Positions 2,721 to 6,470 of a stretch of 64,000 nt of DNA are shown here, in pieces. The notes below the pieces were generated by a model, which saw only the letters and a program-made list of their open reading frames with translations, was not told where the DNA came from and did not search any database. This DNA is from Eledone cirrhosa (lineage: Eukaryota): positions 325,376,001 through 325,440,000 of the forward strand of contig OZ024742.1 in NCBI GenBank assembly GCA_964016885.1, written 5' to 3'. The translations under genes were made by a program, and so were the position numbers. Every line of letters begins with the position of its first letter. The stretch's first letter is position 1.

Positions 2721-5453
2721 TCTACCTGGAATTGTGACCGATAGATAGTATTAGCAATTGGAAAGACCAACGGAAACATTATTTCCTCGGTCCGATTTGA
2801 CGAAAGTCAATCGAAAAAAAAAGAATATATATATATAGTCTATCAATGTCCTTTCGTCACACATCTGTGACATCATCAGTGGTATTATTATGTTTCTTCC
2901 CGTTGTATTGAAATGCCTACGCCCTGTTTATTATTTTATTTATTTATTTATTCTTGTCTCTGTCTTTGTTAGCGCATGTACGTATAAACACGCACACATA
3001 TATTTTGCCAGTTTTCTGTGCATATAAAAAGAAGTAACACTTGTATGATTTAAATCTGAAGCATACGGTTAGAAAATTTCAAACTATCTGTTTATATCAA
3101 ACTGAAATGTTCCTGTCTACCATAACAAATAAATTGACAACGAAGTTTCAATTGAAATAGTTTTCTGGCACAAATGAAAGGAAAAATTCATTTTAATTCG
3201 AAAATAAATCTATATAATGAAACTTGTATAACGGAAACATGCATATTTATAGTGAAATTTGATGTGCTCTATTCAAATTCGTCATCTTCAAACAGAAAGA
3301 GAAAAAAGTCTCGTGATCGCGAAAGCAAAAACATGAGAAGAAAGATCATTGTGATATATTTCATATGACTTTCGAATAGAGATGCATAAGGAATTTGATG
3401 AGCTAGATCAAGCTATTGGCATAAAAAGAATATGTCAAATGTTGAAGCTGAACACACAGTTCTGATACTAAAATAGAATGATTAGAAATATCGTATACTG
3501 GTGAAAAACACAACGGAATACAACAGATGATGCGCTCCAAGAAGCAAATGCCAAGGAACAGCAGATAAAAAACAGAAGCAAAATAACTGTAATAACAATA
3601 ATTTCATTTACTCATAATTATAGTTTAAGGATATTATTTAAAATAATAATATTTCATTTTTCTCATAATTATAGTTTATATAAGGATAACAGTAAACGAG
3701 ATACATTTCTTATACATATACAGGTGTGTGTGTATGTTTGTGCATTGATTATGTACGTGTTTGTGTGTAAATATCAATATTCTATTGAGTTCTTTGATTG
3801 ATCTCTGTCTATTCAATTATTAGCTTTTTTTCATACAAAGCTCTAGAAACACTTTCCTACATGTCAACGTTTCGCCGTAAATTTTATTCACACATACACA
3901 CACACTCACTCACACGCAGACATATTCACACACATAAACACGCACACACACACACACACACTCACACACACATACATACACACACTCACACACACACGCA
4001 CACATATTTGTGTGCATATATATGTACATCTGATTTTGATAATATATATTTTATATATGCACGTATATGCATATATATATGTATGTAAATATGGCGTGTA
4101 TTATCGAATATTGGATAAAGATTATTGATTGCTCCTAAAAGTAAATTTTGCGCCTAAATTCATGCATGTAGTTATTCATTAGATATACATTTTAAAAACA
4201 TTGTTGTATCTATCATTGGTAGTTTGTTAAAGACAAGACTATATAATTCTATATGCATTAGGTTTACATACAATAGGCGCAGGTGGGATTCACTATCAGT
4301 CTTTATGTTTACGTCGAGTTAGATAGAAGTTCGACAATACGAGATCGATGAAAAATGTACCAGGCCGGAGAAAATAGGATGGAGAAGAAAGCCGTATACG
4401 AATCGATACACAAAATATTTCCATATAATAACCATTCCTTTAGTCTTGGGATTTTGGTAGCTTAGATACAACAGAACTTATATATATGGTTATTACATAT
4501 AAATGTGATCTATGTGGATTCGTACACAACTATATTGTTAATCAGGCTGTGTTATTGTTACCGTCAACTGTGTGTAGAAGTTTGTGTTTACCTACTACTT
4601 GTTCTTGAATATATGGAATACATGTACGCACACACACAATTACACCCCCTCGTATAAACACAACATTCTAAGCGGAATTGGCGGTATCAATAACACAGTC
4701 TAGTTATCAATAGGTAAATTCCTACATAAAAACACATAGAGAAAATCTACATATACATTAATTATAATAATTAGGTATATCAAACACAGAAGTGTTTGAC
4801 TTATCATTTCTTAAACTGTGTATATATGAATATGCATATAAATATATATATACATAAATACACACACACACACACACACACACACACACACACACACACA
4901 CACACACACACACACACACACACACACACATGCACACACACATATATCTATCTATCTATATATATATATATATATATATATATATATATAATGAATATAA
5001 CGAAGGAAGTGTGGTAAGGAACCAGGTGGACCATAACGCACCAGAATACTCGATACTATGGGTAGTAGAGTGGGTAATAGGAAAAGAGTCAGGAACCCGA
5101 CAGCTGAGCTCCGACTGTTTCGAAAGTTATCTCTGAACTGAGTTCGTATCTAGCTCTCAAAACGGCCGGAGCTCAGCCGTCGGGGTTCTGAATCTTTTCA
5201 TATATATATAAGTATGTATATGCGTGTGAGTAAGTGTGCGTGTTTGTATATATATATATATATGTGTGTGTGTGCGTGTGTATAGAAAAGAAAATCTCGC
5301 TCTACATGGCTGAATACAATAAATGTAATCTGAGTTTTTCGAATATTAATAATAACATTCGATTCGTTTGCAATTTTGCAAACAAACCTCAATTTTATAG
5401 CCATGTCAGTAGAATGAACACTTCCTTCTTGCTCTTATGTTGGCATGGGAACA

Positions 5454-5502
5454 GAACTACAGACACTAATGTTTCTGGTATCACTTTTCATCAGTACAGC
5501 TC
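5454..5502 (-). ncRNA. Minimal type I hammerhead ribozyme candidate
   Basis: gagctgta CTGATGA aaagtgatacca GAAA cattagtg TC tgtagttc. 8-bp stem I with G-U pairs; stem II degenerate. Confidence 0.7.
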
Positions 5503-5820
5503 ACTGTTCACCTGGCAAACGAATCGAATGTTATTATTAATATTCGAAAAACTCAGATTACATTTATTGTATTCAGCCATGTAGAGCGAAATTTTCTTTT
5601 TTATTTGAATATGGCAAAGCCGGCCATTTATCTCTCGTATACAGGAAACTGACTGGCCAGTCTGCTGATATGCAAATCTGGCTGATCAGTGGATCTGCTA
5701 ATATGCAGATCTGACTGATCAGCCAGTCTGCTAATATGCTAATCAGGCTGATCAATCACTGTGTAATTTTGAAAATAGCATATATTTTCACTAGCTCTGA
5801 CAGTTTGGCAGGTGAACAGT

Positions 5821-5870
5821 GAGCTGTACTGATGAAGGGTGATACCTAGAAACATTAGTGTCTGTAGTTC
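5821..5870 (+). ncRNA. Minimal type I hammerhead ribozyme candidate
   Basis: gagctgta CTGATGA ag-ggt-gat-acc-ta GAAA ca-ttag-tg TC tgtagttc. GUC cleavage triplet. Confidence 0.78.
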
Positions 5871-6470
5871 TGTTCCCATTCCAACATAAGTACAACAATG
5901 AAGGGTTCATTCTCCTGACATGGCTCTAAAATTGAGGCTTGTTTGCAAAATTGCAAACGAATCGAATGTTATTATTAATATTCGAATAACTCAGATTACA
6001 TTTATTATATATATATATATATATATATATATATATATACATATATATATATATATATATATATATATATATATATATATATATATATATATATATATAT
6101 ATATTAGGTATAGGATTATCCTAGATGTAGTAATGGTTAATTACTACACTGGATATGGGGATATGGTTGACGTACGGTGAGAGGTTACTCTACGAGTTAT
6201 GGAAGAATTGTTGAAGAAACTTAGTTCCTGATCCTTCTGTATACTGGAGTGTATATAAAGAATGTATAATAACAGGTAGACATCATAAAAAGGTAATTTA
6301 TTCCGTGTGCTTACAAATGTTTCCACGGTTGTACTACAGCCTATTTATGCTATGTGCAAATTTACAACTATTTGCAGAACTCAAATATCCATTACTACAT
6401 CTAGGATAATCCTATACCTAATAATCGCCTCCTACACAGTTGAGCAACCACACCGACATACGGCATTAAT

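Follow-up and report, generated by a model that had tools for sequence, protein, structure and literature searches.

The locus considered here lies in a 64,000-nucleotide stretch of Eledone cirrhosa DNA, hereafter called the window, and combines a short non-coding repeat, a hammerhead core on each strand and a partial copy of itself in inverted orientation. It raises the question of what kind of element it is, how the inverted arm came about, and what its interior does. Very probably, it is an animal non-LTR retrozyme, which carries a hammerhead and is mobilised, as a non-autonomous passenger, by Penelope-like retrotransposons (PLEs), inserted with the standard PLE layout; this particular copy is an ordinary and probably dead one. 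Animal retrozymes, their link with PLEs and the inverted-plus-tail layout are already published, and the layout recurs throughout the 64-kb window. What sequence comparison appears to add is a promoter-like motif, triplicated in this element and shared with two divergent families nearby, together with a TATA-like box and twin 3' hairpins.

Structure of the locus and its ribozymes

The features of the locus are listed in Table 1. The plus arm is 492 nt long, i.e., 1.12 units, and its period of 438 nt is evidenced by 56 identical positions out of 58 between 5953-6010 and 5515-5572; unique sequence runs up to 6006, followed by (TA)n. The inverted arm matches the plus arm at 193/208 positions (minus 5520->5314 with plus 5803-6010) and at 88/90 positions (minus 5371->5282 with plus 5515-5604), and overruns the right arm's end by 32-36 nt. 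An earlier note, made from the sequence alone, had described a 438-nt monomer running for about 1.1 units on the plus strand, an inverted arm of about 230 bp ahead of it and internal repeats of about 30 nt, and all of this is in line with the present analysis. Its suggestion that a read-through transcript would form about 200 bp of double-stranded RNA is likewise supported by a computed fold, with 192 predicted pairs spanning more than 250 nt.

Table 1. Features of the hammerhead-bearing locus, in coordinates of the window.
Feature	Position	Strand	Remarks
Left flank, (TA)n/(TG)n	about 5247-5285	.	microsatellite
Inverted 5'-truncated arm	5286..5520	-	235 nt; order 5520->5286: hammerhead, linker, twin hairpin, tail
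Tail	5286..5317	-	32 nt (36 if extended to 5282), T run at end; left arm only, none at right end
Twin hairpin, left arm	5339..5385	-	fold
Left hammerhead	5454..5502	-	intact core and 8-bp stem I, but broken stem II; probably inactive
Full unit	5515..5952	+	438 nt; period 438
Direct repeat, copy 1 (pseudo-LTR-like)	5515..5568	+	53/54 identical to 5953-6006
Inversion junction	5516..5520	.	5-nt microhomology CAAAC common to both arms
T run closing the tail register	5592..5602	+	possible transcript 3' end
Three 33-nt repeats	5656..5754	+	3.0 copies, each self-folding
TATA-like box	5781..5785	+	26 nt ahead of GGC at 5807; the distance is 27 nt in both family B and family C
Type I hammerhead	5821..5870	+	stem I 5821-5828/5863-5870, core 5829-5835
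Twin hairpin	5939..5985	+	just upstream of 3' end; z -4.8; candidate reverse-transcriptase recognition signal
Direct repeat, copy 2	5953..6006	+	right end, tail-less
Right flank, (TA)n	6006..6104	.	microsatellite

Both flanks are dinucleotide repeats, and no target site duplication (TSD) is discernible at the element. The 2-kb bin around it has 34% GC, and no ORF with reverse transcriptase (RT) and GIY-YIG was found within 5286-6006 by ORF scan; the plus-strand stop-to-stop frames of at least 80 aa that touch the element all enter from or exit into the microsatellites. An 18-mer scan against prokaryotic genomes gave seven matches, none extendable, versus about 17 expected by chance. This is the only locus of the 438-nt family (family A) in the 64-kb window, where two divergent relatives were found: family B, 40 kb from the element, is identical at 184/313 positions (59%; none of 300 shuffles as high) and family C at 177/322 (0/300 and 2/200 shuffles as high). 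The order of modules is the same in all three families, and family B ends in the same register as the element's right end.

The two CTGATGA...GAAA cores begin at 5829 on the plus strand and at 5494 on the minus strand. In the plus hammerhead, an 8-bp stem I that includes three G-U pairs is combined with a weak stem II (3 bp and an extra A), a palindromic, fully self-complementary stem III (5852-5861) and a GUC triplet, with cleavage predicted after C5862. The two divergent hammerheads with 8-bp stem I and GUC announced in the earlier note were thus found as regards both cores, both stems I and the plus-strand triplet, but not as regards an intact minus copy, whose broken stem II makes it fail the hammerhead descriptor. 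This left hammerhead is probably inactive, judging from its constrained fold (-4.7 versus -15.5 kcal/mol for the minimum free energy, MFE). The descriptor search returned four strong motifs in the window versus none in each of 30 shuffles. Rfam gave no match at the gathering threshold over the whole window and, with E up to 5 over 4900-9600, 17 matches that included no hammerhead, neither ribozyme being reported. These 17 were rejected as microsatellite or hairpin miRNA look-alikes far under the cut-offs, including a MIR6019 match to the 33-nt repeats (27.6 bits versus 100). The active fold of the plus ribozyme was computed to lie 8.3 kcal/mol above the MFE, both in the isolated motif and in the circle. 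For the dimer, keeping the core unpaired costs 11 kcal/mol relative to the unconstrained fold; in Xenopus, only one of nine predicted retrozymes cleaved in vitro. The locus has one hammerhead per strand instead of at least two consecutive complete units on the same strand. Because each strand has a single ribozyme, no monomer can be excised from this copy, which is a dead end.

Insertion layout and competing explanations

The layout is that of a PLE insertion: a partial tandem (pseudo-LTR) with an adjacent head-to-head inverted 5'-truncated copy, a tail of 32-36 nt at one end only, and a microsatellite target. The type I hammerhead recognised by the descriptor and the short, non-coding, low-GC unit are those of non-LTR retrozymes. 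Published PLE insertions carry an inverted 5'-truncated copy beside their 5' end, a one-sided tail of 30-40 bp and a bias toward (TA)n (PMC8557442), and A. vaga Pen2a has the same layout with a 31-bp tail (PMC3846280). Dual hammerheads lying 100-700 bp apart on opposite strands have been described (PMC4209133), and in an assayed case a PLE protein both cuts the two strands and extends them, two adjacent start sites defining the tail (PMC11167929). Twelve other inverted loci examined in the window have a similar layout, which makes 13 in all, from several unrelated families; at 12 of the 13, one arm extends further, the other having its end at a dinucleotide repeat. Junction microhomology of 3-5 nt was observed at four of the five junctions examined, and the plus arm starts within a hairpin at four of the five tested, in this element inside the 3' arm of hairpin 1.

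The window also holds two ORF-bearing PLEs. The neighbouring one displays the Hydra-clade-defining RWK, DKT and CxCx5C motifs and its own inverted end, and by these motifs and its homologs in marine invertebrates it is classed as Hydra-clade-like. Pfam detected no RT domain in its fragments, where a weak GIY-YIG match (E 8e-4) fell below the cut-off, and none in the second PLE ORF, while a PDB search was empty. The comparison with these PLEs yielded no autonomous partner: no significant similarity was found between the unit and the non-coding stretches tested beside both PLE ORFs (188, 100, 15 and 157 of 200 shuffles as high), and four short motifs of the element had no element match in the supplementary data of a PLE study.

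Mechanistically, a donor locus of more than one unit would have been transcribed, probably from the promoter-like region within the unit, and by analogy with relatives the hammerheads would cut the multimers into 438-nt monomers able to circularise. Since stem III is palindromic, it is the dimer that may be cleaved, whereas pairing between core and stem III would keep the monomer off. A PLE RT/GIY-YIG protein acting in trans would bind the twin hairpin and cut the (TA)n target, and cDNA synthesis would then begin at either end of the cut target, its two start sites lying 32-36 nt from each other. One cDNA would account for the 492 nt (more than one unit) and the other for the approximately 235 nt, tail included, that are seen in the structure; their 3' ends may have paired through the 5-nt microhomology, each then serving as primer for the second strand of the other, which would generate head-to-head arms. 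Most likely, the two cDNAs derived from different RNA molecules or from different units of one multimer.

That two templates were used is favoured by the divergence of the arms. They differ at 13/229 positions, unevenly so: 12/143 versus 1/86, with nine differences within one 60-nt stretch (Fisher p = 0.035, clustering p = 0.02, a modest and post hoc statistic). This uneven divergence argues for two templates and against a simple fold-back; it could also stem from local gene conversion, or from selection that acts on the hairpins. The earlier note had proposed a circularly permuted insertion plus template switch, in which the inverted arm arises when a single cDNA folds back or switches onto itself. 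What was retained from this proposal is that the insertion derives from RNA, carries a ribozyme, exceeds one unit in length and has microhomology at its junction. Fold-back of a single cDNA appears rather unlikely: it predicts even divergence, and the inverted arm would end at the cDNA start (6006), so that the tail needs a second switch. Nonetheless, the 5-nt microhomology would let the cDNA 3' end pair with its own strand, self-priming has been proposed for palindromic PLE junctions (PMC3846280), the window contains one near-perfect palindromic junction (44823-44938, 56/58), and the start of the plus arm within a hairpin also speaks for this model. Circular permutation is poorly supported. 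The 3' ends are not arbitrary, the right end sharing its register with the end of family B, and the start of the plus arm is a mere truncation at the inversion junction.

DNA-based origins were also weighed. If the element were a DNA transposon of MITE type, with a hammerhead sequence lying by chance in its long inverted repeats, this could explain an inverted repeat of about 200 bp around a 280-nt interior and the TA-rich flanks. Such an origin is extremely improbable here, since the ends are unequal by the one-sided tail, a 438-nt direct period runs inside, families B and C are found either in tandem or as one arm alone and their junctions vary, and any TSD is indistinguishable from the microsatellites; in this respect the earlier note was right not to see a MITE. 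Microhomology junctions are common in DNA repair, and near-identical local duplications exist in the window (e.g., 44669-44825 with 45371-45527), so that part of a plain monomer might have been duplicated after insertion by template switching at a replication fork, or by a fold-back artefact of assembly. The differences between the arms rule out a read artefact, and such an origin seems very improbable in general: both outer ends fall at element-specific registers, and the layout is found at 13 loci in several unrelated families.

In classical LINE twin priming the inverted part is not known to duplicate the 3' end, whereas the inverted arm of this element duplicates it. The element also has neither a poly(A) nor a simple-repeat tail of its own at the 3' end, and a one-sided tail has been described as unique to PLEs. 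It is thus hard to believe that a LINE of the RTE or L1/Tx1 type carried the element, even though RVT_1 matches mark LINE-type reverse transcriptase ORFs at 18354-20100 and 61949-62989 and LINEs have been named as possible retrozyme mobilisers (PMC7229834).

Candidate signals within the unit

The case for a PLE passenger leaves the interior of the unit to be considered. The 33-nt repeats are identical pairwise at 26, 30 and 25 of 33 positions, and in each a conserved motif of the AATCAG..CTGAT type comes after an octamer-like 8-mer, which is exact at 5670-5677 and variant in the copies at 5703 and 5736. A single-copy homolog of the mini-repeat occurs at 45314-45336 with three mismatches in 23, a count reached in 0/100 shuffles. 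Across families that are only 55-59% identical, the position of this motif relative to the ribozyme core is kept (-88, -83 and -79), as is the TATA-to-GGC spacing in families A, B and C (Table 1), a pattern built from the same sequences that it describes. The combined motif, TATA and GGC pattern matches only its six source sequences, so the shuffle mean of 0.02 provides no fair p-value. The sharing of the mini-repeat motif, the TATA-like box and the GGC by divergent families suggests a candidate internal promoter.

Somewhat short of an even prospect is the reading that the 33-nt repeats are RNA hairpins, acting in stability or protein binding, or a neutral local duplication, with no promoter involved. 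Every copy indeed self-folds, the array reaching -53.3 kcal/mol (z -7.3), the exact octamer is present in the window at chance frequency (7 found, 6.5 expected), and it is absent from family C. The conserved spacings speak against this reading, as does the loose folding of the homolog in family B. Measured from the putative start at GGC 5807, the octamer-like motifs are at -137 to -71, and not at the snRNA-type distal position, which in human is about -170 to -250 (PMC9652321); a conserved motif falls in the interval expected for a PSE (about -70 to -40). No snRNA gene was found in the window by Rfam, and no mollusc PSE sequence by literature search; a bacterial promoter scan gave 0 sites, its bacterial model not being applicable to this host. 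A type 3 Pol III promoter would call for a TATA box ahead of the start and for no T run of four or more up to the terminator; T4 runs were found neither before the tail in family A nor downstream of the GGC in family B, and internal T4 and T7 runs are present in the family C copy tested.

At the 3' end, the twin hairpin is kept in family B with a compensatory change. In alignment A2, 81% of cells pair and the covariation score was reached in 0/500 shuffles, from three independent families only and with family C out of register in hairpin 2. Shared by divergent families, the twin hairpins suggest a candidate recognition signal for the reverse transcriptase. A degenerate pattern search for them was uninformative (17 matches versus 8.8 expected), and strong 3' folding is not general, with z at or below -3 in 4/10 element ends versus 5/60 background windows.

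A wider reading is speculative, and we consider it unlikely as a whole. In these families the unit would have a conserved compact promoter made of an upstream motif (in family A triplicated and with an octamer), a TATA box and a start at the GGC about 22 nt before the core; the left arm, from the GGC register to the T run, would copy a full-length primary transcript of about 230 nt; the tail would be the distance from priming at the transcript's 3' end to internal priming just past the twin hairpin; and each inverted PLE insertion would consist of a pair of cDNAs that were primed independently and became linked through their 3' ends. If true, molluscs would have a counterpart of the promoter of newt satellite 2, and the RNA signal needed by the PLE reverse transcriptase would be reduced to a minimum. 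The module order kept in three divergent families is a pointer to what transcribes animal retrozymes and to what this enzyme recognises, and the 235-nt arm, in which ribozyme, twin hairpin and tail are all present, could serve directly as a minimal template in an in vitro PLE assay.

Comparison with known systems

The element resembles animal non-LTR retrozymes (Cervera and de la Pena 2020, PMC7229834; Li et al., preprint 10.64898/2026.07.22.740005) in its low-GC non-coding unit of a few hundred nt, its one type I hammerhead per unit with a short palindromic stem III, its insertion of more than one unit and its co-occurrence with PLEs. It differs in that the locus consists of 1.12 units plus an inverted arm; because it is not a tandem array, it falls outside the definition of an active retrozyme (10.64898/2026.07.22.740005). 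Retrozyme units range from 51 to 972 bp across species, and the 438-nt unit is longer than the 350-390 bp repeats of mussels because of the triplicated 33-mer. With the pseudo-LTR insertions of PLEs (D. virilis Penelope, A. vaga Pen2a, Anolis Poseidon, Hydra clade), it shares the partial tandem with a head-to-head inverted 5'-truncated copy, the one-sided tail of 30-40 bp, a hammerhead in the repeat, the (TA)n target and the lack of a discernible TSD; by contrast, its direct repeats enclose no ORF, and the stretches tested at the PLEs of the window showed no relationship to it in sequence. Newt satellite 2 is a tandem hammerhead unit for which an internal snRNA-type promoter has been reported (cited in PMC2220036), comparable to the octamer-like motif and TATA-like box upstream of the ribozyme here. 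Schistosome Sm-alpha elements are described as small dispersed hammerhead SINE-like retroelements with an internal promoter; they are tRNA-related Pol III elements, whereas a scan of the present window with ARAGORN detected no tRNA gene.

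The inverted 438-nt unit and its hammerheads

The 438-nt period proposed in the earlier note was indeed recovered, nucleotides 5515-5572 (+) recurring at 5953-6010 with 56/58 identities, and the unique sequence ends on the right at 6006, from where (TA)n follows. The inverted arm that it described was likewise found: read on the minus strand leftwards from 5520, it matches plus 5803-6010 (193/208) and then 5515-5604 (88/90). The internal mini-repeats were resolved as three copies of 33 nt at 5656-5754. Two features come in addition to this earlier description: the left arm extends 32-36 nt further than the right arm, forming a one-sided tail, and five bases at the junction (5516-5520) are common to both arms, as microhomology. 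No TSD was discernible at either flank, both of which are dinucleotide repeats, and no second close copy of the unit was found within the window.

Two divergent hammerhead cores were present as claimed, beginning at +5829 and -5494. The 8-bp stem I and GUC ascribed to both hold for the plus motif, which also has a palindromic stem III and fits the type I descriptor; the minus motif fails this descriptor because two substitutions and an indel of 1 nt break its stem II. Over the whole window the descriptor found 8 motifs, where shuffled sequence averaged 0.8; 4 were strong, a grade that no motif attained in 30 shuffles. An Rfam search of the window reported neither hammerhead, so that the ribozyme assignment rests on core consensus and stems. 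The copy at 5286-6006 is probably no longer working. Transcripts of either strand carry one sense ribozyme and two are required for monomer release (preprint 10.64898/2026.07.22.740005), so that a monomer cannot be cut out of this locus. In the predicted 438-nt circle, the core is paired with stem III at a probability of 0.88, and adopting the active fold would require 8.3 kcal/mol. The palindrome of stem III (10 nt), computed to self-pair at -8.8 kcal/mol, resembles that of dimer-acting animal hammerheads; the computed dimer with cores unpaired lies 11 kcal/mol above the unconstrained dimer. The roughly 200 bp of dsRNA expected in a read-through transcript agree with 192 long-range pairs in the computed fold, which would bury the ribozyme.

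Inverted layout and its origin

In a masked self-comparison of the window, 27 rows were inverted and lay within 4 kb of each other; 13 loci from them were examined (4533, 15933, 21417, 53134 and cross-locus rows being left out, and the ends of the 5286-6006 insertion being taken from its own arm comparison). One arm stops at a dinucleotide repeat and the other continues in 12 of these 13 loci, and polarity is head-to-head in all four whose sense is given by a ribozyme; the inverted layout is routine within the window. Among the 13, extensions of 30-40 nt occur only at 5286-6006 and 12988-14044, those elsewhere reaching about 60-200 nt where measurable.

Further features in the window, besides the 438-nt unit
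Feature	Position	Strand	Observation
Family B	45073-45358; partial copy 45617-45678	minus (main copy)	one mini-repeat motif, hammerhead with different stems, twin hairpin
Family C	12988-14044, 15681-15966, 51003-51589		hammerhead element of about 306-314 nt
Adjoining PLE (Penelope-like element)	6102-9387		frameshifted; RT-like and GIY-YIG pieces; own inverted left arm (6391 to 6102); hammerhead with very long stem II (core at 9277)
Second, Hydra-like PLE	45790-47874		uninterrupted 694-aa stop-to-stop frame; neither its start nor terminal repeats found
Young element	30343-31337		99% identical tandem, period 524; inverted arm 63-66 nt, extension about 60 nt; doubtful hammerhead-like match at 30445/30969
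Another family	5077-5203, 21865-21973, 44823-44938, 55186-55255		near-palindromic inverted insertions with one-sided extensions; 44823 copy with almost perfect palindromic junction, as expected from self-priming
Inverted elements	9511-9763, 11604-11966, 49635-49871, 52580-52854, 53546-53848		microsatellite flanks, no recognised hammerhead
Further hammerhead-like cores	14301	minus	within 877-nt repeat, copies 89% identical
	48863		within the same 877-nt repeat
	26996, 55045, 57703		
LINE-type reverse transcriptase ORFs	18354-20552, 60499-62989	minus (60499-62989)	Pfam RVT_1 in both
SINE-like family	16205-16416, 21395-21590, 23411-23598, 37421-37741, 40332-40528		about 90% identity; 121-nt tandem at 37495-37739; presumably resembles octopus OK SINE

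A single cDNA folding back on microhomology could have made the inverted arm. Such folding back, however, predicts arms identical at birth and stopping at 6006. Over ribozyme and linker the arms differ at 12/143 positions, over hairpins and tail at 1/86 (Fisher p = 0.035; p = 0.027 under an alternative count of this split), and 9 of the 13 differences fall within 60 nt (p = 0.02); we regard this origin as rather unlikely. Two cDNAs primed from both target ends on different RNA units, and then annealed, would explain both the tail and the uneven arm divergence. Two templates are the origin that we favour, with some reserve, as the statistic is modest and a similar pattern could arise from gene conversion or from selection. 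Microhomology of 3-5 nt was found at 4/5 junctions examined. A hairpin loop or 3' arm of the source unit holds the start of the right arm at 4/5 junctions (5516, 6390, 13592, 30405, 49763), versus 10-15% of background positions in this post hoc comparison, and such starts may mark stalling of the reverse transcriptase.

Divergent relatives, terminal hairpins and a candidate promoter

Families B and C, two divergent families, are colinear with the 438-nt unit. Family B shares 184/313 positions with it (59%), more than any of 300 shuffles, and terminates at the equivalent register; by module, mini-repeat and hairpin matches likewise exceed every one of 300 shuffles, while those of spacer, ribozyme and linker are equalled or exceeded by 16/300, 127/300 and 174/300 shuffles, respectively. 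Family C, with its tandem and inverted layout, divergent ribozymes and 39-nt one-sided tail at 14044, shares 177/322, a value reached by 0/300 shuffles in one run and 2/200 in another; its 3' end alone is not above chance (201/300). Two hairpins lie immediately upstream of the 3' end in the unit and both families, and hairpin 2 differs between the unit and family B by one two-sided and one one-sided change. The left end of the adjoining PLE folds strongly (z -4.9), but a z of -3 was reached by only 4/10 element ends versus 5/60 background windows. The twin hairpin (5939-5985, +) is a candidate reverse-transcriptase recognition signal.

The mini-repeats triplicate a motif of which family B has a single copy, with 3 mismatches over 23 positions. 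Their 8-mer, which we take to be an octamer, is exact in copy one and family B and off by one base in copies two and three; family C keeps the AATCAG..CTGAT-type motif and lacks the adjoining octamer. Measured from the ribozyme core, the motif is found at -88, -83 and -79 in the unit, B and C, respectively, and is followed by a TATA-like box (-48, -46 and -51) with GGC 26-27 nt downstream of the box; the motif was absent from 6/6 other ribozyme-core sites checked. The left arm starts in this GGC register, at 5803-5809 of the unit, and extends as far as the next T4+ run. This arrangement reads like a candidate internal promoter, for which newt satellite 2, as cited in PMC2220036, offers a precedent; Penelope has an internal promoter (PMC2377424), and the pseudo-LTR (pLTR) of A. 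vaga carries a TATA box (PMC3846280). Against it, octamer frequency in the window equals chance, the motif spacing is unlike that of the human distal element (PMC9652321), family C contains internal T runs, the combined motif, TATA and GGC pattern was fitted post hoc, and the mini-repeats give a good RNA fold as well (z -7.3). PMC2770079 gave no usable PSE. A conserved internal promoter together with a recognition signal appears improbable to us.

Neighbouring and published Penelope-like elements

The RWK, DKT and CxCx5C motifs of the adjoining PLE fit the Hydra clade, its named homologs come from marine invertebrates, and the second PLE is 69% identical to it in DNA over 1.4 kb. No similarity of the 438-nt unit to either PLE was detectable in the four stretches tested. 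The SINE-like repeats of the window and its microsatellite density would suit an octopus host.

Mollusc retrozymes have already been published (PMC7229834) and their PLE origin is already in print. The open literature yielded no cephalopod retrozyme family or promoter, in a search thin in subscription journals and without Repbase/Dfam that does not establish absence from print; supplements of preprint 10.64898/2026.07.22.740005 may list related families. PLEs make up 6.83% of the O. vulgaris genome in a 2026 annotation (PMC13282606), whose text and supplement, as searched, leave ribozymes unmentioned.

Opposite-strand hammerhead pairs 100-700 bp apart were recorded in 2014 (PMC4209133). A purified PLE protein was shown to cut both strands and extend them; it starts at two neighbouring sites, and the interval between these forms the tail (PMC11167929). 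In A. vaga Pen2a, an inverted pLTR and a tail of 31 bp accompany two direct pLTRs (PMC3846280). The insertion at 5286-6006 indeed looks like published PLE insertions, with their partial tandem, adjoining inverted 5'-truncated copy, (TA)n bias and, on one side only, a tail of 30-40 bp (PMC8557442).
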